This document shows, piece after piece, positions 2,505 through 57,262 of a DNA stretch of 64,000 bases. Source of the stretch: a plasmid. How positions within the stretch are numbered: the first letter of the stretch is position 1; the number at the start of each line of letters is the position of its first letter. The stretch lies in the sequence record AP029161.1, one strand, 5' to 3'. Position numbers and translations under genes: made by a program. The notes under the pieces were generated by a model. It was given only the letters and a program-made list of their open reading frames with translations. It searched no databases and had not been told where the DNA came from.

Positions 2505-2715
2505 TTCAGTTCTCCCTTTGGGATTTGTGTTGATGTGAAACTTTTTGTCTCACATATAATTGTTTACATCCGTTTAAACATTTTGTCAAACATTTTAGTT
2601 GATTAATTTAAAATATTTTTTTTATTTTTGTTTGACAAAAATTTATTTACATGTAAATATTTATTTGTGGAACGATAGTCGACCACACTAAACAAATCCC
2701 TTAGGGAGAACTGAA

Positions 2716-8959: not shown

Positions 8960-10060
8960 TCATTTTATAAACCGACTATACAGCTCTGATATTTTTCCAC
9001 CGCTTTGAAGAAAAAATGAATTTTTTTCGTTGCTATTTTCATGAATAAAATATTTGTATTTGTTTGTCTTATTTTTAAAATCATTTTTTAACTCATACTC
9101 AGCATCTTCTCTTGAATCAAAGTACTCAATAAATTCTGAAATATTTTCTACTCCGTGCTGAGGATAGGTTGAGTTAATCATTTCCAAAAAAAGATGTTTT
9201 AAAGAATTATTAATATAAAAATAAGAAGATACATATTCTCTTCTATAATATTTACTTTCATCTTTTTTAACCTGCAAAATAGAAGGAAGAGGAATGCCAA
9301 ACCTACCACCATCACACCATACCAAAATCAATTCACCAATTTTGGTTTCTTTGTATTTAATTGTTAAAATGTCGGTGTAAGATTTCTGATCGTTAAAAAC
9401 TAAAACCCAATTTTCAAAATATTCTCTATTAAATTTACTTTTCTCAGAAATTATTGAAAAATTAGGATCTGGTTCATAATAAAAATGCAGTTTAGTATCA
9501 TTTACATAATTGTATTTCCAATTATTTTTATCTTTAAGATAAGTCATTATTTTTTCATTTGGAGTTTTGTCGATATTAAATCTTTCACGGTACATGTCTT
9601 CTATTTGTTTAGGAGTTGCGCTTCCATTCTTTGGTGTATTGCTGCTGCCAAGTCTCGTGTAAACTACACCTGCTCTAATTGTATCTTTTCCTTGACCATA
9701 GTCTTGCGTTAGAAAATAAGGTTTATGATTTATGTTTTGAATTTGAATAATATCTATAGGATTATCTCTGTAATTTAAAGCAAATAACTTTATATTAGGA
9801 AGATTATTTAATCTTGCATTTTTTACTAAGTCCATTAAGTCATTTTCTTTTTTTCTCTTAATATCATTTTTAATATCAAAGAAATTTTTATCGTCATCAA
9901 CGCCAAAAATAAGATATTTATACTTGCTATCAGTTTTTGAATTTGCAAGACATAATATGTCATGAATTAAATCTGAATTATTTTTATGATATTCTCTTTT
10001 AAAATCTATAAATTCACATTCTTGATTATTAATCAATTGCTTAATTTCTTCGTGATTCAT
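8960..10060 (-). CDS. AlbA_2 / Schlafen-like (divergent AAA) DNA-binding domain protein
   Basis: N-terminal pattern EFIDFKREY..LANSK..YLIFGVDDD typical of the AlbA_2 domain. The C-terminal ~200 aa are unassigned. Confidence 0.55.
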   Translation of the reverse strand: MNHEEIKQLINNQECEFIDFKREYHKNNSDLIHDILCLANSKTDSKYKYLIFGVDDDKNFFDIKNDIKRKKENDLMDLVKNARLNNLPNIKLFALNYRDNPIDIIQIQNINHKPYFLTQDYGQGKDTIRAGVVYTRLGSSNTPKNGSATPKQIEDMYRERFNIDKTPNEKIMTYLKDKNNWKYNYVNDTKLHFYYEPDPNFSIISEKSKFNREYFENWVLVFNDQKSYTDILTIKYKETKIGELILVWCDGGRFGIPLPSILQVKKDESKYYRREYVSSYFYINNSLKHLFLEMINSTYPQHGVENISEFIEYFDSREDAEYELKNDFKNKTNKYKYFIHENSNEKNSFFLQSGGKISELYSRFIK

Positions 10061-10624: not shown

Positions 10625-12029
10625 TATTCAAGAAAGAATTGCAATTCTTGAAAAGCTAAAAAAGATAAAAGAAAGAAAAAAAGAGCAAGATGATTTTCTA
10701 TCCTTCTGTATAAAAAGTTTTCCCAGATATAAAGCTGGTTGGGTCCATGAAGAAATTTGTAAAAAGTTAGAAAAATTTGCTCATGATGTTTATCTTGAAA
10801 AATCTCCTAGACTGATGATCTTTATGCCACCAAGACATGGAAAATCTTTTTTAGTTAGCGAAAGATTTCCTGCTTGGGTTTTAGGTAAATACCCTTATTT
10901 TGAATTTATTTCTGCAACATATGGAAAATCTTTAACACAAGGCTTTTCAAGAAAGTGCAGAAATTTAATTCACTCAAAATGGATAAAAGAAATATTCCCT
11001 AACTTTGACTTAAAGAAAGATAGTAAATCAGTTGATTTTTGGGAAACAACTTATGGTGGAGCTTTCATCGCAACTAGTATTGGTGGATCAGTAACTGGTA
11101 AAGGCGCACACATTTTATCAATTGATGATCCTCATAAAGGTATAGAAGAAGTTTTATCAGAAGTGATGAGAAACAAAACTCATGATTGGTATAAAACAGA
11201 TGCTTTTACACGTCTTTTACCTGGCGGTGGAGTAATTTTAACTCTTACGAGATGGCACGATGATGATTTAGCAGCAAGAATATTAGCAGAAGATACGGAT
11301 AATGAATGGGAAGTAATTTGTTACCCAGCGATAGCTACTGAAGATGAAGCGCATAGGAAAAAAGGAGAAGCATTACATCCAGAACGTTATCCTTTAAAAA
11401 TGCTTCAAAAGCTTTTAAAAACCCTTGGTTCGTTTTTCTTTAATGCTCTCTATCAACAGGACCCAGTGCCTGCTTCTGGAACAGTATTTAAAAAAGAATT
11501 TTGGAGATTCTATAATGAGCGATTTACTTTTTACGACAAAATTATTCAGGTTTGGGATTTAAGTTTTAAGGGTGACGAGAAAAGCGACTATACTGTGGGG
11601 CAAGTTTGGGGCAAAAAAGGAGCAAACTTTTATTTACTCGATCAAGTACGAGGTCAATGGGAATTTACTCAGCAAATTGAACAAATAAAAATGTTATCAA
11701 AAAAATATCCACTTGCATATTCAAAATACATAGAAGAAAAAGCTACGGCGACAGCGGTTATTTCTACACTCAAAAAAGAAATTACAGGTTTAATTCCATT
11801 CAATCCAAAATCTGATAAATACTCACGAGCTTTAGTTGCACAGCCTCCACAACAAGCAGGAAATATTCATCTACCTAACCCTCAACTAAATCCTTGGGTA
11901 AACGATTATATTGATGAACATTCTCGTTTTCCAAAAGGCAAAAATGATGATCAAGTCGATTGTACAAGTTTGGCGATGATTCAATTAAATAATAATGGGC
12001 TGGAGCATTTAAAAGCTTTGGTTTCTTAA
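10614..12029 (+). CDS. terminase large subunit
   Basis: ATPase motifs PPRHGKS and ILSIDDPHK, coupling motif LTRWHDDDL, and C-terminal nuclease Asp cluster GKNDDQVDCT. Confidence 0.85.
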   Translation: MSIDIQERIAILEKLKKIKERKKEQDDFLSFCIKSFPRYKAGWVHEEICKKLEKFAHDVYLEKSPRLMIFMPPRHGKSFLVSERFPAWVLGKYPYFEFISATYGKSLTQGFSRKCRNLIHSKWIKEIFPNFDLKKDSKSVDFWETTYGGAFIATSIGGSVTGKGAHILSIDDPHKGIEEVLSEVMRNKTHDWYKTDAFTRLLPGGGVILTLTRWHDDDLAARILAEDTDNEWEVICYPAIATEDEAHRKKGEALHPERYPLKMLQKLLKTLGSFFFNALYQQDPVPASGTVFKKEFWRFYNERFTFYDKIIQVWDLSFKGDEKSDYTVGQVWGKKGANFYLLDQVRGQWEFTQQIEQIKMLSKKYPLAYSKYIEEKATATAVISTLKKEITGLIPFNPKSDKYSRALVAQPPQQAGNIHLPNPQLNPWVNDYIDEHSRFPKGKNDDQVDCTSLAMIQLNNNGLEHLKALVS

Positions 12030-12859
12030 ATTTTAAATCCGAAATGCTTAAATGCTTTTTCTAGTAAATTCTTTTCATCTTCGGTTAGATTATTTTCTAA
12101 AATGTAGTTGCTAAATTTTTCGCTAGTAAATTTTTTACTTTCTTTTTGGGGAACGCGTTCCCCAGTCAGCCCACAAATTAAATTAAGCTCATCGATTAGT
12201 TTATCATCGCTTTCCCATTTTTTCTTGGAAATATTACAAAGAGAACGAAGGCTGAATTTTTCAGGGAACTCTTTGATTAACTCTCTTGCTTTTATTGGCC
12301 ACTGACCAACTTTTATTATATTTTTAATATATTTTTTATCTCGACTAAATTTTTTCGCTATGTCGTCAGCATCCCATCCTTGCGCAACTAGATCAGCGTA
12401 GCCCTCAGCTACATCAATTGGATGCAAGTCTTCACGTAGTAAATTTTCAATTAAAGCATGTTCAGTTCGTTTTGAAGAATTAGATGAGTAAACTTTAAGA
12501 TTAGCTTTAATTTTTTCAATACCAAGTTCTTTGCATGCTAAGATTCTTCTATGACCAGCGACAGCAATTAGTTCAAAATCATCACCATCAATGTTTCTCC
12601 TAACCTCAACTAGAACTGGCTGGATCACTCCCTCACTTGCAATACTATTCTTTAAATCCAAAAATTCAGGTTTACTAATATCAATTCTGTTTCTAATATT
12701 TTCATTTAATTTTATCTGATTTACGTTTAATGCCACTGTTTTATTTTCTTCAGCAGCTTTTTCATAAAGTAAAACAGTATTTAGTCTATCAGAATTAGAA
12801 ACAACGCTAGCAAATCTACTTAATTTTTCAGCTTCAATCGCTTGACTAATAGTACTCAT
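12026..12859 (-). CDS. parB: ParB-like partition protein
   Basis: ParB-box motifs GHRRILACKELG and ENLLREDLHPID. It lies downstream of parA and overlaps it by 4 nt. Confidence 0.8.
   Translation of the reverse strand: MSTISQAIEAEKLSRFASVVSNSDRLNTVLLYEKAAEENKTVALNVNQIKLNENIRNRIDISKPEFLDLKNSIASEGVIQPVLVEVRRNIDGDDFELIAVAGHRRILACKELGIEKIKANLKVYSSNSSKRTEHALIENLLREDLHPIDVAEGYADLVAQGWDADDIAKKFSRDKKYIKNIIKVGQWPIKARELIKEFPEKFSLRSLCNISKKKWESDDKLIDELNLICGLTGERVPQKESKKFTSEKFSNYILENNLTEDEKNLLEKAFKHFGFKI
12148..12163. promoter_or_regulatory. 16-bp perfect palindrome GGGGAACGCGTTCCCC (candidate parS copy inside the parB 3' end)
   Basis: Identical to the copy at 13810..13825. A GC palindrome of this kind is very improbable by chance in AT-rich DNA. 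Confidence 0.5.
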
Positions 12860-13737
12860 ATTTCAAGATCCTCTATTTCGATAGAATTTAAACTGTAATT
12901 TTCTTTCTTAATTTCTAATTTAGAAGTTGCTCCTGTAATTTCTTTCTGTGCTAAATCAATCTGTTTTTGAACTTCTTCAGCTAGGCTCAAATATGCTTTT
13001 GAAATTGGGCTTTTTTCTTTATAAATAATTAGTGCTTGATGTTTCATCGATGCACCATAAATCATTTGCGAAAATGGAATAATAGTTTCAAAAATGTGGA
13101 TATCATTTTCATTACCTATTTTTCTTAGAAGCTTTTCACCTGCTAATTGGAATGCGCTTTTTTTATCGAATTTCTGAATTACACATCCAAGCATTTTTAG
13201 ATTTGAATTGTAGTATTGTTTTATTTTTTCGGCATTGCCAACAACCATTGCTAGCCCGTCAATCACGTCGTTTTCAGCAAACATTGGGACCAAGTAAAAA
13301 TCACTCTCGCGAAGTGCTGACTGAAAAAGGCAATCAGGATTCGGATTTGTATCAATGATGACAAAATCATAACTATTGCGAACATCACTTAAAACATCTG
13401 CTAGCAAAAAAAGTTGTTCGGGCTTTCCTGTATGACGTAAAACTATTTCCTCTAAAGCTGTCGAACTTGGCAGTAAATCTAAATTCTCTACATTTGTTTT
13501 CACTGCAAACTTTTTAAAATTAACTTTTTTTAAAATTGCATTAGCTACAGATTGTTCTGATTTTAATTCACGACTACGAACATTCAACAATTCAGTAGCA
13601 TTAGCTTGATAATCGAGGTCCACCAAAAGAACTTTTTTTCCTGAATAAGCAAGGCATGAAGCTAAATTAACAGCACATGTTGTTTTTCCAGAACCTCCCT
13701 TCTGAATTGTGACCGTTATAATTTTTCCCATTCTCAT
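12856..13737 (-). CDS. parA: ParA partition ATPase (type Ib)
   Basis: Deviant Walker A KGGSGKTT. Confidence 0.85.
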   Translation of the reverse strand: MRMGKIITVTIQKGGSGKTTCAVNLASCLAYSGKKVLLVDLDYQANATELLNVRSRELKSEQSVANAILKKVNFKKFAVKTNVENLDLLPSSTALEEIVLRHTGKPEQLFLLADVLSDVRNSYDFVIIDTNPNPDCLFQSALRESDFYLVPMFAENDVIDGLAMVVGNAEKIKQYYNSNLKMLGCVIQKFDKKSAFQLAGEKLLRKIGNENDIHIFETIIPFSQMIYGASMKHQALIIYKEKSPISKAYLSLAEEVQKQIDLAQKEITGATSKLEIKKENYSLNSIEIEDLEI

Positions 13738-23540: not shown

Positions 23541-23574
23541 TTCAGTTCTCCCTATGGGATTGGTTTTACATTGA

Positions 23575-44009: not shown

Positions 44010-45614
44010 TTATTCATATATTTCTTTAATAAAATCTTTAAATGCTTCAGCTATTTCATATAGAGTAATACTACTATTTAATTCACTTTTTTGATGAAGA
44101 ATTTCTTGATTTAAATTTAAAATTTTATTTGATTGTTCAATAATTTTTTCTACACCAAAATTTTTTAAATTATCTTTATTTATAAATAAAATCATCATCC
44201 AATTATATATATTTACATACTCAATTTTACTAAATATTGATTCAATTTTATACTCCCTGTAAAATTCATTTAAAACAAACTCTCTAAATAGATAATATTC
44301 TACAGGAAAACCAAAGAAATTACATTTTTTATGATATACAATAGTGATAAAGTAGAGTTCTTTAAATTTTAAATAGTGATCGAAATTTTCTTTTACTATG
44401 TTATTAATTAAAGAATTCCAAAAATTATGAATTATACTTTGATTATTAAAATCTTTAAGATTTGTATCTCCTAATCTTAGATGGTTACATAAAACCTTTA
44501 AATTTTCTTCTAGTTCAAATTCATTTAAATGTATTTTTTTGGAAATTCTCCTTATTAAATCATTTAAAGTATTAAATTTTACTAGCATACTATAGCTATG
44601 GTAATCAGAATTGCTATTATTTAAATTAAAATATAGCATAAATTCAAAGTAATCAATTATTTCTATAATCTCTCTTGTGCTAAATATTTTTAAAAACTTA
44701 AGCTCATCAGGAAGAGATTTTGTTTCATTTAAAATAAATGGAAACATGTTGTTATTAATTTTTTTATGCAAAATATTATTTAATATCTCAGGAATTATAT
44801 CTAATTGAAAATATTTCGCATTTAATTTTTCGATCATTTCAATAGCATTGTTTTTATTGTCATTTTTCGAGTATCCAAAGGGGACTATGTATTTTCTCCT
44901 GTATCTGAGTAAATTTGATAATAAGGCCCAACGGTCTTCTTCTTTTAATGAACTTCGATCAAGATCATCTAAAATTATTACTTTAATTTTGTTATCGTAC
45001 CATAATTCAATAGATTCAAAAAAACAATTATAAATGTATGATATTTTTAATTTATTTGTTGCAAAAATAAAAGGAATAATTAAAAAAATGAAATAAATAA
45101 TTGTACTGTATGATGAATAATCAAAACCGACAATTTTTTTAAAATATAATTCATTATAAAATATAATCAAAATTGATAATATAAAATAATAAATGGAAAA
45201 AAATATTTTCCAGTGTTTTGGTGCTATATGTGAATACGCTTCATCTAAAGTAGAAATTCCAAAAAAAGAAATTTTCTTTTTATAATATCTACTATTCAAG
45301 CATAATTCATGAACTACTCTATCTGAAAGAGCGGATTTACCCGCACCCCATTCACCAATTATAAACACTGTTTTATTATTTCTATCTAAAAAAGCTTTAA
45401 TTTCACTAATTTTATTAGTATGATATTTGAATTCTATAAAATCCGAAGGAGTATTATTTTTATCTATTTCATTCCAAAATAGATAAAAAGATTCTTTCAA
45501 TATTTCATAGTATGTATATATGTTAAAAATTCTTTTGATTTTATTAGTACAATTATCTTTTAATTTAATATATTTTTCAGATTTTATCATACAAATTATT
45601 TCACCAGTGTACAC
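44010..45614 (-). CDS. KAP-family P-loop NTPase
   Basis: Walker A GEWGAGKSAL and Walker B VIILDDLDR are separated by two inserted TM helices (FFSIYYFILSILIIFY and IIYFIFLIIPFIFA), the hallmark of the KAP family. Confidence 0.7.
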   Translation of the reverse strand: MYTGEIICMIKSEKYIKLKDNCTNKIKRIFNIYTYYEILKESFYLFWNEIDKNNTPSDFIEFKYHTNKISEIKAFLDRNNKTVFIIGEWGAGKSALSDRVVHELCLNSRYYKKKISFFGISTLDEAYSHIAPKHWKIFFSIYYFILSILIIFYNELYFKKIVGFDYSSYSTIIYFIFLIIPFIFATNKLKISYIYNCFFESIELWYDNKIKVIILDDLDRSSLKEEDRWALLSNLLRYRRKYIVPFGYSKNDNKNNAIEMIEKLNAKYFQLDIIPEILNNILHKKINNNMFPFILNETKSLPDELKFLKIFSTREIIEIIDYFEFMLYFNLNNSNSDYHSYSMLVKFNTLNDLIRRISKKIHLNEFELEENLKVLCNHLRLGDTNLKDFNNQSIIHNFWNSLINNIVKENFDHYLKFKELYFITIVYHKKCNFFGFPVEYYLFREFVLNEFYREYKIESIFSKIEYVNIYNWMMILFINKDNLKNFGVEKIIEQSNKILNLNQEILHQKSELNSSITLYEIAEAFKDFIKEIYE

Positions 45615-48575: not shown

Positions 48576-48768
48576 TTCAGTTCTCCCTTTGGGATAGGTT
48601 TTAAAATCGTCACAACGACGACAATGTTATTTTTACCACGTTGTAAATATTTGTCAACGGGTCGATATTAAAAAAATATTTACAATTATCAATTGACAAA
48701 TATAAAAATTAATTTTATTTTATATTTGTTACTTTTTAATCAACTCAAATCCCAAAGGGAGAACTGAA

Positions 48769-50308: not shown

Positions 50309-51502
50309 ATGCAAAATAATAGAAATAATTTGAGTAATCCGAAATATTTATGGTTCTTTGTAATGTCATTTACAGTAATTATGATTTTTGCGAATTGGTT
50401 TGATCCCAGACTAATTTTAATTCCTTTTTTTAATTTAGAAACTGATGCTGGAACTTTAATCTTTCCACTTACATTTTTAGTTTCAAATATCATTACAGAA
50501 GTATATGGATACAAACATGCCAGAAAAGCTATTTGGTGCGGCTTTGGATTTAATTTATTTGGCCTCTTATTTGGCCAGTTACTAATACATTTTCCTTCTC
50601 CAATTTATGCTGATAATGTAGCTTTTGATTCTGTAATTAAAAAAAGCTCGATTATTGTAATTGCTTCAATGATTAGCTATCTTGTTTCAGAGCCATTAAA
50701 CTCATATATAATGTCCAAAATGAAAATTAAATTTAAAAATTTAACTGCTTTGAGATTTGTAATGTCAACTTTTTTTGCTGCATTTGTTGATTCTATTGTT
50801 TTTACAGCGATAGCATTTTCTTGGTACTTAAAAATTGAAGACTGTGTAAAATTAGCTTTAACTATGTGGATGTTAAAAGTTTTAATTGAATCAATTGGTA
50901 CATTATTTTCTGTTAGGCTAACAAATTACTTAAAAAATAAAGAAAGAATAGATATTTATGATCGAAAAACAAAATTCAATATATTTAGTTTAAACACAAA
51001 TTACACTACTGAAGATAATGAATACAAAAATAATTTATCAAGTATAAACTCAGAAAACAATACTGAATATTATATAACAAATGATTTAACTGAAAAAGAA
51101 ATTGAAAGCTCATGGAATTTAGTAAAAAATTGTTTTTGGTCTGAAGAGATTCCTTACGTTAAGTTCAAAAGTGCTTTAAATAATTCATTAAATTTTTGCA
51201 TTGTTAATGTAAATTCGGGTCATATATGTGGGTTTGGAAGAGTAATAACTGATTACTACACTTATGCATATTTATGCGATGTCGTGATTCATCCTGAATA
51301 TAGGAAAAAAGGATTAGGAAATATATTAATTGACAATATTTTAAATCATAAGGATTTACAGGGATTGAAAACTATAAATTTACGTACAACTAAAGAAGCT
51401 AAAAAAATATATATTAAAAATGGTTTTAAATTAGCAAAAGATCCTGAATATATTTTAGAAAAAGAAGATTTAAATATTTATAAAAAATTTAAGGCAGTTT
51501 AA
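50309..51502 (+). CDS. fusion protein: N-terminal Vut_1/YhhQ queuosine-precursor transporter domain, C-terminal GNAT acetyltransferase domain
   Basis: FPLTFLVSNIITEVYG, FVDSIVFTAIAF and MWMLKVLIES resemble YhhQ. C-terminus has HPEYRKKGLGNILI GNAT motif A. Confidence 0.65.
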   Translation: MQNNRNNLSNPKYLWFFVMSFTVIMIFANWFDPRLILIPFFNLETDAGTLIFPLTFLVSNIITEVYGYKHARKAIWCGFGFNLFGLLFGQLLIHFPSPIYADNVAFDSVIKKSSIIVIASMISYLVSEPLNSYIMSKMKIKFKNLTALRFVMSTFFAAFVDSIVFTAIAFSWYLKIEDCVKLALTMWMLKVLIESIGTLFSVRLTNYLKNKERIDIYDRKTKFNIFSLNTNYTTEDNEYKNNLSSINSENNTEYYITNDLTEKEIESSWNLVKNCFWSEEIPYVKFKSALNNSLNFCIVNVNSGHICGFGRVITDYYTYAYLCDVVIHPEYRKKGLGNILIDNILNHKDLQGLKTINLRTTKEAKKIYIKNGFKLAKDPEYILEKEDLNIYKKFKAV

Positions 51503-52151
51503 CCTTAATTATTTCTCCAAGTATTTCATAATTTATATTTAGCTCTTCGATCTGAGAAGATTCTTTATCAATACTGCCTAACAAAATTCTTTTTCCATTA
51601 ATCAAAATTCTTTTTAATGATATTTTATCTTTATATTTAATAGCACAAATTGTATCATTTTCAGGTTTTTTATTAATATTTACAAACCAAATTGAGCCTT
51701 CATTAAAAATAGGTTTTATAAAATCATCAAATTTAAAGCCAAATATCTTATCGTTTATATATTTTATATCAATATCAGTATCAGTGTAAAACAAAGCTTC
51801 TTTTGAATCAGAAGGACTATAAACTGGAATATTTTTCAGTGTTTTCTTTGGAATAATACTAACATCTTCAGTGTAAATTTTCTTGACTCCTAGAATATCA
51901 TCAAGTGAAATATTATACCCATTATTTTGAAAATAATTAGCAATTTTTTTCAAAACCATTTTAGAAATGTATTTCGTTTTTTTTGTTTCATCATTACTTA
52001 ATAAACGATAAAAAACAGATGAAGAAACGTCTATAGCCTCAGCCAAAGCATTTAAAGAAAAATTAGAGTCTTTATCTTTTTTTAAATTTATTAATTTAAT
52101 TATCTGATTTTGAATATGATGCGTATTTTCGACGCTGTCCCACGCTGCCAC
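51489..52151 (-). CDS. CI-like HTH transcriptional regulator
   Basis: N-terminal HTH LNALAEAIDVSSSVFYRLL. C-terminal domain lacks clear S24 catalytic residues. Confidence 0.45.
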   Translation of the reverse strand: MAAWDSVENTHHIQNQIIKLINLKKDKDSNFSLNALAEAIDVSSSVFYRLLSNDETKKTKYISKMVLKKIANYFQNNGYNISLDDILGVKKIYTEDVSIIPKKTLKNIPVYSPSDSKEALFYTDTDIDIKYINDKIFGFKFDDFIKPIFNEGSIWFVNINKKPENDTICAIKYKDKISLKRILINGKRILLGSIDKESSQIEELNINYEILGEIIKVKLP

Positions 52152-52279: not shown

Positions 52280-53584
52280 ATGCACACCACTACCGCAAAT
52301 AGAATGTATCTCAAATGTGCACAAAAATCAAATATTTCGCACAGGGAGAGCTACGTGTCTGATTTTATTATGTCAAATGCTTACCAAAAATCCTCCAAAA
52401 CCAGAAAAACATACAAAAATAAATTAATTTTAAGACCGATGAAAGAGGGTTATACGCTTGGGCATGCTCAAAAAGAAGCTTATAATGGTGGACGCTCATT
52501 AAGAGCGATTTGGTCAAATTCGAGTTTAAAGCCAAATCAAAAATTAGTGTTGTTGTGTCTTGCGTCCCACTTAAATTTCAAAAATACTTTTAAAGCTTGG
52601 CAGAAAATTTCTGCAAAACAAATTGCAAGTGAAACGCAATTTGGAATTCGTACTATCCATTCTATTTTAGCTGATTTAGTAAAAAATGGTTATTTGTTAA
52701 AAAAACAAAATTTTTCAAGCAAAACTTTTTTACAAGAAGAAAATAGTTATTGTTTATCAGATAAGCTTTTTGATGAGCATGTTATTTATTTGCAAAAAAG
52801 TTTTATCCCCAAGCACGATGAGCACGTTAAAGAATTTAAGCAACAAAAATTTGCAAAAAAGAGTTATATACCTTCTGCAAAACCTGCAGAGGCGGTAAGC
52901 AAAGCCTGCAACCCTGCCTTGCAAGATTCGCAAGCCGCCATTGCAAAACCTGCAGACGTTTTTCCTCTTGTATTTTCCCCTAATTTTCTCCCTTTAAATA
53001 ATTCCATGTGTGGTGAAAATAAATCACACACAAAAAATGAACATAAAAATAGCAAAAATTTAAAACAGGCAAGTATTATTGTTTGCGAGTTGCTTAAGCA
53101 TAAATTAAATAAACGCTTTATCCCAAATTTTGAATGTGAGGGCATTATAGAAAGGTCAATAAGCAAGCTTAATATTATTGATATTAAGATAATCTTAGAC
53201 TTTTGTAAGGAAGCAATCTCTAATCCCAATTACAAGAAGATTAACAGTTATGAAAATATTGAAGTTATTTTCATTCAAGAGCTTGAAAGTTTCATTAATG
53301 ATAAAAATTATATTTCAAATTTCAGAATTTCAGATCATAAAGAAATAAAAACGGAGATAATTAAAGCTGAACCTCTTGCAGAAAACAAAACTCAAACTGT
53401 AATAGAAGAATATCCTGAACCATTCAAATCATGGTTCAAGACGCTCAACGAAACAACAAAAAATACTATTCGAAAAGAAATAAAAATTCATGGCAGAGTT
53501 AAATTTTTTAACTTAATCCTTCCATCCGTAAGAGCTTATAAATCCTTTATAGAGCAATTAGACTCAGAAAGAAGGGCTGCATGA
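52280..53584 (+). CDS. putative phage replication initiator (winged-helix N-terminal region). True start is probably downstream of 52280.
   Basis: NQKLVLLCLASHLN..ISAKQIASETQFGIRTIHSILADLVKNGYL winged-helix-like. Confidence 0.35.
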   Translation: MHTTTANRMYLKCAQKSNISHRESYVSDFIMSNAYQKSSKTRKTYKNKLILRPMKEGYTLGHAQKEAYNGGRSLRAIWSNSSLKPNQKLVLLCLASHLNFKNTFKAWQKISAKQIASETQFGIRTIHSILADLVKNGYLLKKQNFSSKTFLQEENSYCLSDKLFDEHVIYLQKSFIPKHDEHVKEFKQQKFAKKSYIPSAKPAEAVSKACNPALQDSQAAIAKPADVFPLVFSPNFLPLNNSMCGENKSHTKNEHKNSKNLKQASIIVCELLKHKLNKRFIPNFECEGIIERSISKLNIIDIKIILDFCKEAISNPNYKKINSYENIEVIFIQELESFINDKNYISNFRISDHKEIKTEIIKAEPLAENKTQTVIEEYPEPFKSWFKTLNETTKNTIRKEIKIHGRVKFFNLILPSVRAYKSFIEQLDSERRAA

Positions 53585-53841: not shown

Positions 53842-54030
53842 TTTTTTTCGTATTTTACCACTACCTGATGGTAAAATACCCTTAAAAAAAGTCAGACAAA
53901 AAAATCGACACATGAGATTTTTTAAATTACATTTTTATCAGAACCCTTTTATAAAATCGTTCCTTTAGGAATAGCCGAAGTAAAAAGTAAAAGGGTTCAC
54001 AAGAAACCATTCCCTTTGGGAGTACCGAAA

Positions 54031-54621
54031 ATGCAGAGTATTAAGATAATTAATACCTCTAATAATGAGGTATTTTATGCTACTGAAAAATCAGTAGGAT
54101 TTGATATTGCAGCGGATGAAAGTGTTTTAATTTTACCGCTGCAAGTTAAAAAAATAAAAACTGGCTTAAAATGGAAAATAGAAGATAATTCTGAATTAAT
54201 AAGCATAAAAGAGGCTGCTAAATTAGTTAAATGCTGCACCTCAACAATCCATCGACAATGTAAAAAAGGTAGGCTTAATTTTGAAAAAATAGATGGAGTT
54301 TATTTTATAAATAAGGATCATCTTTTATCGTATTTTAATAATGAAGAAATAATCGATTTACCTGAAAAATATGAGCTTCAAATAAGACCTAGAAGCTCCT
54401 CACTACTAAAAGAAAAACTTCATATACAAATAGGAACAATTGACCCTGATTACACTGGTGAAATTTGTATTATCGCACAAAATATTTCTTTTAAACCAAA
54501 ATTAATTTTAAAAGGGGAGCGGATTGCTCAAGGAATAATATCGAAAGTTTGTTTAGCTGAAAACGTATTTAGTAGAAATATAATTAGAAACAATAATGGT
54601 TTTGGGAGTACTGGAAAATGA
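54031..54621 (+). CDS. dut: dUTPase with ~50-aa HTH-containing insertion between motifs I and II (start revised to the ATG at 54031)
   Basis: All five dUTPase motifs present (VGFDIAA, RPRSS, GTIDPDYTGE, RIAQG, NNNGFGSTGK). Insertion ISIKEAAKLVKCCTSTIHRQCKKGRL is excisionase/MerR-like HTH. Confidence 0.65.
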   Translation: MQSIKIINTSNNEVFYATEKSVGFDIAADESVLILPLQVKKIKTGLKWKIEDNSELISIKEAAKLVKCCTSTIHRQCKKGRLNFEKIDGVYFINKDHLLSYFNNEEIIDLPEKYELQIRPRSSSLLKEKLHIQIGTIDPDYTGEICIIAQNISFKPKLILKGERIAQGIISKVCLAENVFSRNIIRNNNGFGSTGK

Positions 54622-56302: not shown

Positions 56303-57262
56303 ATGAATGCTTCATTTATAAAGCTATCGTTTCCATTAAGTGCAAAATTGGGGATACCTAAAGCATTAATTTTACAACGCATTTGCGACTGGATTAGATA
56401 TAATAAGACTAAAAAAAATATGAATATTAATGGAAATGTATGGGTCTATAGATCTGCAAAAGAGCTTGCAGATGATTTAGATGGCAATTTTTCCATTAGA
56501 TCTATTGAAAGACATTTAAATTCTCTTATTAAAAACGGTTGGATAATAAAAGAAAACTTTAATAAAAATACTTTTGATAGGACCTGTTGGTATACGGTCA
56601 ATGCAAAAAAAATAAAGGAAACTTTTAATAATTGGGAACTTGAAACAAACTTTAAAGATTCTGACCTAATTGATGATCTCGATCCGTCACATCTGTCGGA
56701 TTCGTGTCCGACAGATGTGACGGATCGAGATCATCAAGTTGTCGGAATGGATTCCGACAATCATGAAAATCTCCCTATATATAATAAAAGAGAAGAAATA
56801 AAAGAAGAAAAAAAGAAGAAGATTGCAAAAAAAGAAAATTCTTGCTTGAAAGAAAAAAAACTTAATGAACGAGCCTCTCAAATGCTTAAGTCAGGGATTG
56901 AGGCTTATGTCAAAGCTTATGAGTATCGTTACAAAGCAAAATTTCTTGATTTTCCCACTCTGAGTCGCTCAATTCAACAAATCATAAAAAAAATGGGCAC
57001 ATCATTTTCGGAACAAAATTTAATTGATTGCATCAATTGCTATATGCGCTCTCAAAATTCATGGCATGTAACTAAAGGCCATTCGCCACTTTATCTAGCA
57101 TCAGATATTCAAGGAATTTTTGCAGCGACTCAGAACAAACAGCAAATCAAGACACAAACACAGGCACGCAAGGACGACGTTTCACAGTCAATCGACACTA
57201 ACATCATCAACGCTATCAACTCGCTTAAAAACGAAAAGAATAATGAAATTTTGGAGATTTAA
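56303..57262 (+). CDS. replisome organizer / DnaD-like replication protein containing a candidate internal origin
   Basis: N-terminal winged-helix-like region. Internal 31-bp perfect palindrome with four GATC sites. Confidence 0.4.
   Translation: MNASFIKLSFPLSAKLGIPKALILQRICDWIRYNKTKKNMNINGNVWVYRSAKELADDLDGNFSIRSIERHLNSLIKNGWIIKENFNKNTFDRTCWYTVNAKKIKETFNNWELETNFKDSDLIDDLDPSHLSDSCPTDVTDRDHQVVGMDSDNHENLPIYNKREEIKEEKKKKIAKKENSCLKEKKLNERASQMLKSGIEAYVKAYEYRYKAKFLDFPTLSRSIQQIIKKMGTSFSEQNLIDCINCYMRSQNSWHVTKGHSPLYLASDIQGIFAATQNKQQIKTQTQARKDDVSQSIDTNIINAINSLKNEKNNEILEI
56670..56737. repeat. 31-bp perfect inverted repeat TTGATGATCTCGATCCGTCACATCTGTCGGA / loop TTCGTG / TCCGACAGATGTGACGGATCGAGATCATCAA (candidate ori)
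   Basis: Read directly. Contains four GATC. GC-rich relative to flanks. Confidence 0.7.

Follow-up and report, generated by a model that had tools for sequence, protein, structure and literature searches.

The window examined here, a 64,000-nucleotide stretch of plasmid DNA (sequence record AP029161.1) from the freshwater bacterium Pigmentibacter ruber, carries a dut gene whose product belongs, by profile, motifs and fold, to the trimeric dUTPase family, and whose enzyme core is interrupted by a segment that profile searches and structural modelling identify as a separate folded domain of the HTH_17 family of helix-turn-helix (HTH) proteins. The closest structural matches of this domain are DNA-binding proteins of the excisionase (Xis) and MerR kind, and a dUTPase that binds the DNA of its own element is the reading that we favour.

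The dUTPase core and its inserted domain

The open reading frame (ORF) at 54031-54621 on the plus strand begins with ATG, ends with TGA and encodes 196 amino acids, with a GGGAG Shine-Dalgarno sequence 8-9 nt 5' of the ATG. An alternative TTG at 54016 falls within a leader motif, and the homologues all begin with MQSIK at the ATG equivalent; the start is therefore placed at 54031. The product is 100% identical to an entry in the nr database, 'hypothetical protein GTC16762_33120' of Pigmentibacter ruber. The parts of the gene to which we refer below are as follows.

54031..54621 (+), the whole dut gene with its stop codon, from the ORF list and sequence: a 196-residue dUTPase with a nested winged HTH (wHTH)
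54031..54180 (+), dUTPase core, N-terminal part, residues 1-50, matched by solved dUTPases over their residues ~14-57
54181..54357 (+), inserted segment, residues 51-109 (acidic linker, wHTH, flexible acidic linker), missing from insert-free outgroup dUTPases
54196..54336 (+), folded wHTH, residues 56-102, from AlphaFold2 (AF2), Foldseek and Pfam HTH_17
54238..54264 (+), putative recognition helix alpha2, residues 70-78, TSTIHRQCK, from profile alignment to BldC
54358..54618 (+), dUTPase core, C-terminal part, residues 110-196 (best Pfam stretch 108-195)
54385-54402 (+), motif II, RPRSSS, with R121 and S122
54433-54465 (+), motif III, GTIDPDYTGEI, with D138 and Y141
54514-54534 (+), motif IV, GERIAQG, with R164 and Q167
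54586-54615 (+), motif V, RNNNGFGSTG, with R186 and F191-G195

The original prediction had reported all five trimeric dUTPase motifs in this ORF, and a motif check together with a 51-sequence alignment confirms them; motif I reads SVGFDI (54091-54108) and is followed, still within residues 1-50, by the conserved KTGL strand. Invariant in that alignment and present here are G23, D25, R121, S122, D138, Q167, G190, G192, S193, T194 and G195, while Y141, R164, R186 and F191, also present, are nearly invariant, and T44 and G45 of the KTGL strand are invariant or nearly so. Pfam recognises dUTPase (PF00692) in two separate stretches (E 1.6e-12; 47.7 bits vs a cut-off of 22), and PHROGs assigns the product to the dUTPase family phrog_135 (E 5.9e-29) and residues 51-107 to excisionase families. 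Solved dUTPases in the PDB behave in the same manner, matching residues 5-50 and 108-195 (E 1.7e-15 over the latter) and skipping the middle. The full-length AF2 model has a mean predicted local distance difference test score (pLDDT) of 83, and it has the jelly-roll fold of dUTPases, matching those of the PDB in Foldseek at a probability of 1.00 with target-side template modelling (TM) scores of 0.75-0.85. dUTPases of the trimeric class are obligate trimers whose active sites are formed by three subunits, and we infer that the Pigmentibacter protein likewise forms a trimer and hydrolyses dUTP.

Extra residues between motifs I and II had also been predicted, and their site proved correct; the suggested length of about 50 was slightly low, since measurement against insert-free outgroups gives ~59 residues (51-109). 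Where the outgroups read TGLxxxI-PxGYELQ, the dut product reads TGLKWKI, then the 59 residues, then LPEKYELQ, placing the insert at the tip of the beta-hairpin that runs into motif II, directly before the conserved LP-x-x-Y turn. Its guanine-plus-cytosine (GC) content of 27-30% equals that of its flanks, and a foreign composition was rejected on this ground. The claim that the insert embeds an excisionase/MerR-like HTH is upheld by three lines of comparison, namely Pfam HTH_17 (PF12728, residues 57-104, E 1e-7; 32.5 bits vs a curated cut-off of 27), the PHROGs excisionase families noted above, and Foldseek matches to Xis and BldC. The insert of one relative, P0006, also matches HTH_17, at 31.7 bits.

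Structure prediction bears on whether the insert is a domain or a disordered loop, and it points clearly to the former. In the full-length AF2 model the insert has a pLDDT of 79-91 and a beta-alpha-alpha-beta-beta-alpha arrangement (beta1 56-58, alpha1 59-65, alpha2 70-78, beta2 84-87, beta3 90-94, alpha3 95-102), and modelled alone from six insert sequences it adopts the same fold (pLDDT 80). Predicted disorder (pLDDT <50) is confined to residues 105-110 in the C-terminal linker; two linkers tie the domain to the core, one of them short and acidic and the other flexible and ~10 residues long. Among PDB structures, the best Foldseek matches are the Xis of mycobacteriophage Pukovnik (4j2n; root-mean-square deviation 1.1 Å, TM 0.69/0.76) and the DNA-bound Streptomyces BldC (6ama; TM 0.73/0.81), at E-values for these two of just 0.016-0.03. 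Further matches are TraN, the DNA-binding domain of pSK1 Par, MtaN, NmlR, SoxR, CadR, RacA and P2 Cox; every one of the best matches is a DNA-binding wHTH of the Xis/MerR kind, with TM scores up to 0.74/0.82. A search with a profile of the insert returned P2 Cox, BldC and Pukovnik Xis as its top, sub-significant matches.

Several features suggest what the domain might contact. A weak profile alignment (E 0.22) places T72 on BldC Thr27 and R75 on BldC Arg30, which in the BldC-DNA complex make a phosphate contact and a base-specific (guanine) contact, respectively (PMC5859096). The insert domain itself is basic, with an isoelectric point of 8.7-9.8, and the linkers on both sides of it are acidic. 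From this resemblance in sequence and predicted fold we infer that the insert binds DNA.

Two cysteines of the insert form a separate observation. C68 (54232-54234) and C77 (54259-54261) are invariant in 7/7 insert-bearing proteins, including one whose insert has 27% identity, and they sit at positions usually taken by aliphatic core residues in HTH_17. They could form a redox or metal site, or could merely pack in the core.

Distribution and evolutionary history of the insert

Seven insert-bearing dut genes are known, counting that of the window, and all come from one phage family. Five of the other proteins share 50-77% identity and a precomputed HTH_17 plus dUTPase architecture, and another lies on an IMG/VR contig; the sequences derive from independent assemblies held at NCBI, ENA, Logan and IMG/VR. 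The relatives are phage genomes of 63-68 kb from Silvanigrellaceae-type hosts, and wherever contigs reach far enough (two are too short upstream) they present the same order of RecT, variable genes, a replication initiator, a small ORF, dut and a run of small ORFs.

The architecture is very rare. An exhaustive HMMER search of 1.84 billion cluster representatives recovered it at full length in one representative, P0004, together with the insert-free relative P0007, and all other matches scored more than 90 bits lower. No HTH was found in eight other long or multi-stretch dUTPase matches, and among ten long dUTPases scanned from that search and the homologue search only P0006 had one. No insert-bearing relative occurs in 185,579 GTDB species-representative genomes; IMG/VR holds the one already mentioned, and a scan of IMG/VR with the insert alignment alone returned no relatives. 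In the PDB and BFVD, none of the structures extends beyond the core (query-side TM never above 0.60), nucleotide similarity searches of phage and plasmid collections gave no match, and no account of a dUTPase carrying a nested HTH came out of full-text literature searches aimed at dUTPase inserts. A stand-alone HTH_17 gene of a Fluviispira phage was considered as the donor of the insert and rejected as unrelated.

Two side observations concern the homologues. For P0006 (L012 965-1567), the 200-residue database protein reads a TGA as Trp (GSTGKWLIIIK), while the ORF under translation table 11 ends at GSTGK, as do those of all its relatives; gene calling probably produced the surplus residues at the C-terminus as an artefact. 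Additionally, large insertions before motif II occur in the Dut of Enterococcus phage VPE25/VFW (VPE25, L001 2944-3645; ~70 residues) and in P0180 (~45 residues). These inserts lie just upstream of the KTGL strand and cannot be aligned to the Pigmentibacter insert, and P0180 has no Pfam HTH; since both proteins carry large unrelated inserts there, the region of the dUTPase fold before motif II appears from these sequences to be permissive, an insertion hot spot.

The history of the insert can be read against a neighbour-joining tree of 135 core columns, in which nine members form a clade with 100% bootstrap support. Two branches make up this clade, one joining the window group to the insert-free P0007 (78%) and the other joining P0006 to P0008 (99%), and insert-bearing genes are found on both. 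P0008 (L005 6001-6522), the sister of the insert-bearing P0006, keeps both ends of the insert and has lost 19-21 residues over the recognition helix. P0007 (L004 6001-6432, on a Fluviispira vulneris phage contig) has ~9 extra residues, EDKSSFNNI, which resemble the insert linkers, a likeness that is no more than suggestive. By parsimony, the distribution suggests that the insert was gained once, before the common ancestor of the clade, and was later deleted almost entirely in one lineage and in part in another; most lineages have kept it.

Where it is retained, the insert is under selection. Among five close relatives, the ratio of nonsynonymous to synonymous divergence (dN/dS; Nei-Gojobori, dS ~1) ranges over 0.10-0.35 in the insert, compared with 0.05-0.11 in the core; because of this low ratio the insert is a constrained coding module, one less constrained than the enzyme core. 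Constraint is unevenly spread. Helix 1, T72, I73, R75, C77, G80, L82 and helix 3 are invariant across the inserts, while the variable columns are 74, 76, 78 and 81, in or after helix 2, and the wing. A variable exposed helix and wing on an invariant scaffold is the pattern that would be expected of a specificity surface.

The insert also appears to have moved among related genes. Its centre (residues 61-90, 90 nt) is among the most divergent parts of the gene in every pairwise comparison; against the window gene, the 3' end (residues 161-190) diverges equally or more. P0002 and P0003 are 93-98% identical over their first 150 nt and 63-70% identical in the insert centre, a pattern repeated between P0004 and P0005. 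P0003 and P0005, by contrast, have more distant cores and yet the most similar inserts (~80%), with the helix SPTTIRRMCAKG common to both. Two insert alleles, one of the SPTTIRRMCAKG type and one of the S.STI.REC.KG type, occur on two core backgrounds, discordantly with the core tree, in the following mosaic genes.

L002 6001-6588
L011 202-789
L009 3453-4040
L010 3861-4448
L013 4001-4588

The insert also exceeds the core in synonymous divergence (1.0 vs 0.43 and 0.88 vs 0.59 for pairs among P0002-P0005), and for this reason the comparisons favour exchange of the insert by recombination over positive selection alone, a reading drawn from pairwise comparison of seven sequences.

Possible roles of the inserted domain

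Our favoured reading, which we hold with a confidence close to evenly balanced, is that Dut binds the DNA of its own element and acts there as a regulatory or architectural protein. The core would hydrolyse dUTP during replication of the ~64-kb tailed phage-plasmid, and, because dUTPases of this class are obligate trimers, each particle would present three Xis/BldC-like DNA-binding heads. These heads would bind the element's own AT-rich DNA, with the Dut trimer supplying the oligomerisation that free Xis, Cox and BldC reach by cooperative head-to-tail assembly, and the enzyme would double as a regulatory or architectural DNA-binding 'trigger enzyme' whose target specificity varies by lineage. 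BldC and Xis-type proteins are indeed known to work as DNA-bound multimers (PMC5859096), and one report describes Xis/MerR-like proteins that control phage gene expression without a role in excision (PMC12266134).

A number of observations weigh against this reading. The HTH has been lost in P0007 and the recognition helix in P0008, and both retain an intact Dut at the same locus; because these deletion lineages keep Dut, the enzyme does not need the HTH. HTH_17-like domains can, moreover, mediate protein-protein contacts, as TorI does with TorR. Repeat searches in four regions near dut, intergenic sequence included, gave no convincing target, only short pairs at chance level. Matches of the insert to solved wHTH domains are individually weak (E 0.016-1.8), as expected for 50 residues, and the wing is less basic than that of BldC. 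Finally, three-fold symmetry among the heads is incompatible with the head-to-tail arrangement that BldC or Xis adopt on straight DNA.

It is unlikely, though far from negligible, that the insert is instead a protein-protein specificity module for which the core acts as scaffold, possibly as a nucleotide-dependent switch; by analogy with the hypervariable insert of staphylococcal phage Duts, it would be a surface that recognises another protein or is recognised by it, and this partner might be a satellite or island repressor, a host defence sensor, or a component of the replisome or recombination machinery. A conserved core with a fast-evolving, lineage-swapped insert is also what the staphylococcal Duts display (PMC6770826), and such a partner would fit both the failure of the repeat searches near dut to find a DNA target and the presence in relatives, a few genes downstream of dut and in the same gene block, of small Acb2/Tad1-hairpin-like genes that suggest a counter-defence neighbourhood. 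However, the fold, the family and the conserved Thr and Arg of the recognition helix point to DNA binding, the insertion site is unlike that of phi11, and no Stl-like partner gene was identified.

We consider it decidedly unlikely that the HTH only tethers the dUTPase to DNA, whether at the origin, at the replisome or non-specifically on AT-rich sequence, with no regulatory role, such that dUTP would be removed where the phage-plasmid is copied. The setting would suit such a tether, as dut has a replication-initiator gene on either side, with RecT and a Gam-like gene nearby, and its catalytic motifs are under very strong purifying selection. Xis/BldC-type wHTH domains, in addition, make few base-specific contacts and prefer AT-rich minor grooves (PMC5859096), and the element has a GC content of ~30% or less. 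Against this, tethering should be of little benefit where the substrate is small and diffusible, a non-specific tether would not be expected to show fast, allele-like turnover at its exposed helix residues, and insert-free relatives persist at the same locus.

It is improbable, again, that the insert is a neutral or selfish passenger, tolerated in a permissive surface hairpin and lacking a function of its own. The one loss and one truncation with Dut kept would be readily explained in this way, as would a constraint on the insert 2-3 times weaker than that on the core, and the hairpin region does take other large, unrelated inserts upstream of the KTGL strand, as in VPE25 Dut and P0180. A passenger would not, however, be expected to have a dN/dS of 0.10-0.35 at saturating dS, nor to keep a confidently predicted fold and, across inserts just 27% identical, invariant scaffold and contact residues. 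The intein or homing-endonuclease version of this idea was rejected: the insert has 59 residues vs at least ~130, it starts E-D-N-S and ends I-I-D before L-P where splicing junctions would call for an N-terminal Cys/Ser and a C-terminal Asn plus nucleophile, and the dut product has no intein or endonuclease match in Pfam. A second, stand-alone copy of the HTH module is likewise absent from the window and from the related loci.

A long shot is a more elaborate form of the DNA-binding reading, in which the Dut trimer would be a nucleotide-responsive transcription or architectural factor that gates an early developmental decision by the uracil-nucleotide pool. Here dUTP occupancy and ordering of the motif V arm would alter how the three heads engage lineage-specific sites, and the decisions so gated might be copy-number control, the lysis-lysogeny switch or the expression of counter-defence. 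A G-protein-like switch has been proposed for staphylococcal Duts, and this would be its DNA-binding counterpart.

The last candidate, a frameshift or assembly error that fused dut with an adjacent small HTH gene, has no observation in its favour and can be dismissed with near certainty, as in-frame dUTPase sequence both precedes and follows the HTH, the identical architecture is shared by six homologues (50-77% identity) in other, independently assembled sequences, and the insert is under purifying selection.

Genomic setting, leader and relation to known systems

Within the window, dut opens a block of same-strand genes in the early/replication module. The window encodes tailed-phage functions (large terminase, portal, prohead protease, major head protein and tape measure) as well as a Gam-like protein, RecT, two replication initiators, an S24 LexA/CI-like repressor, ParA and ParB, the main landmarks being these.

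12026-13737 (-), ParB/ParA
51489-52151 (-), S24 repressor
52280-53584 (+) and 56303-57262 (+), the two replication initiators
10614-33964, structural module

Because the element combines ParA/ParB with replication initiators, because no integrase is present among the ~40 window ORFs scanned (the window may not hold the whole element), and because its relatives are whole contigs of 63-68 kb in isolate assemblies (Fluviispira vulneris JACRSE010000008.1; IMGVR_UViG_2816332137_000001), it looks like a phage-plasmid of Pigmentibacter, not an integrated prophage. With partition genes on the element and no integrase detected among the scanned ORFs, a classical excisionase role for the HTH was set aside as unlikely. 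Literature searches found nothing on phage-plasmids of the Silvanigrellaceae. Three accessory genes were noted in passing.

50309-51502 (+), a fusion of a Vut_1 transporter and a GNAT acetyltransferase
8960-10060 (-), a Schlafen AlbA_2-domain protein
44010-45614 (-), a 534-residue protein with a weak, below-threshold match to STAND NTPases

Upstream of dut, the conserved early leader announced in the original prediction was indeed found, most plainly as an 18-nt motif, CCCWWWGGGAGWACYGAA, present in 6 copies in the window vs 0 expected. All of them sit directly ahead of the leading gene of a block, with 0-1 nt between motif and start codon, and two divergent pairs are among them. The motif is predicted to form a 6-bp hairpin (ATTCCC/GGGAGT) that encloses the Shine-Dalgarno sequence, and it may serve these genes as a common element of translational control, or be no more than a strong ribosome-binding site (RBS) cassette. 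Of the leader, only this RBS-proximal motif recurs in repeat searches; the leader as a long repeat was rejected by exact and 3-mismatch searches with 19-39-mers and by blastn of the 189-nt intergenic region. The relevant features are listed here.

54012..54029 (+), recurrent leader/RBS motif CCCTTTGGGAGTACCGAA, directly before the dut ATG
2505-2522 (-), 2698-2715 (+), 23541-23558 (-), 48576-48593 (-), 48751-48768 (+) and 54012-54029 (+), the copies of CCCWWWGGGAGWACYGAA
53941..53998 (+), structured dut leader from RNA folding, a long stem around a small inner hairpin
53905..53933 (+), promoter-like site TCGACA-17-TACATT, 9/12 matches in a consensus scan
Conserved dut leader loci: window 53905-54030; L002 5871-6003; L009 3323-3455; L010 3731-3863; L011 72-204; L012 835-967; L005 5871-6003

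The leader, of ~95 nt, folds at -23.2 kcal/mol (z = -2.4), and its stem is kept in 6-7 related loci, with double-sided changes in 5/22 pairs and an RNAalifold covariation term of +1.39, which is not favourable. A AAATCGACACAT promoter-like block is conserved in 7 related loci; the promoter consensus scan as a whole gave no enrichment over shuffles, and an Rfam scan of the whole window at gathering thresholds returned no match. This upstream sequence would make dut the opening gene of a separate transcription unit. Because leader and motif also precede insert-free dut genes in relatives, they are not linked to the HTH.

Comparison with characterised proteins shows which features of the Pigmentibacter Dut are shared and which are its own. 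With the homotrimeric, all-beta dUTPases of Rickettsia (7n56), H. pylori (8hrv) and E. coli (1dup) it has in common the five motifs, the catalytic Asp, Tyr, Arg and Gln, and the C-terminal GFGSTG arm, and it differs in that the hairpin is split, after the KTGL strand and before the LPxxY turn, by a folded domain of 59 residues. With stand-alone wHTH proteins of the Xis/Cox/BldC kind (4j2n, 4lhf, 6ama) the domain shares the length of ~50 residues, the topology, the helix signature (S/K)T(I/V)xRxxxxGxL and the basic surface. Those proteins, however, are free-standing and assemble head-to-tail on direct repeats, several of them serving with an integrase as recombination directionality factors, whereas the domain here lies inside an enzyme whose trimer should arrange it with three-fold symmetry. 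The trigger enzymes BirA, PutA and NadR are metabolic enzymes with a terminal DNA-binding domain and a known regulatory logic; they too join enzyme and DNA-binding domain in one polypeptide, although the domain in Dut is nested and not terminal, and to our knowledge nothing comparable has been established for a dUTPase.

Phage dUTPases are a textbook case of a housekeeping enzyme recruited for signalling, through derepression of Staphylococcus pathogenicity islands (SaPIs), although the generality of this role is debated. The original prediction tied the present gene to these signalling Duts, a tie that holds as an analogy only. Like the Duts of phi11 and 80alpha, the Pigmentibacter protein has a conserved catalytic core with a lineage-variable insert of 30-60 residues, the staphylococcal inserts being described as diverse and 30-40 residues long (PMC6770826). 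In phi11 Dut, however, the alignment places the insert after motif III, in a hairpin between motifs III and IV, whereas here it lies between I and II; and while the insert here matches HTH_17, that of phi11 is known from its description in the literature. The likeness is one of evolutionary pattern, not of anatomy. Staphylococcal Duts derepress SaPIbov1 through Stl, a partner for which the Pigmentibacter Dut has no identified counterpart, and the hosts are unrelated (Firmicutes vs a Bdellovibrionota-type bacterium here). Judged by its sequence, the Pigmentibacter Dut does not appear to be of the staphylococcal motif VI type. As a side observation, the record annotation of phi11_25 (L008 2420-2929; phage phi11, NC_004615) is probably a mis-annotation.

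The reach of these findings is limited to seven sequences from one phage family of a little-studied bacterial order. Within that compass, they add a second, independent phage lineage in which a variable module is carried on a dUTPase, at another site and in the form of a recognisable DNA-binding domain. The close relatives also supply natural controls, namely a full insert, a deletion of the recognition helix, an almost clean deletion, and at least two insert alleles on two core backgrounds. If the Pigmentibacter Dut binds DNA, it would be the first dUTPase to read DNA directly, and a natural case of domain insertion that makes a C3-symmetric enzyme a trivalent DNA binder.

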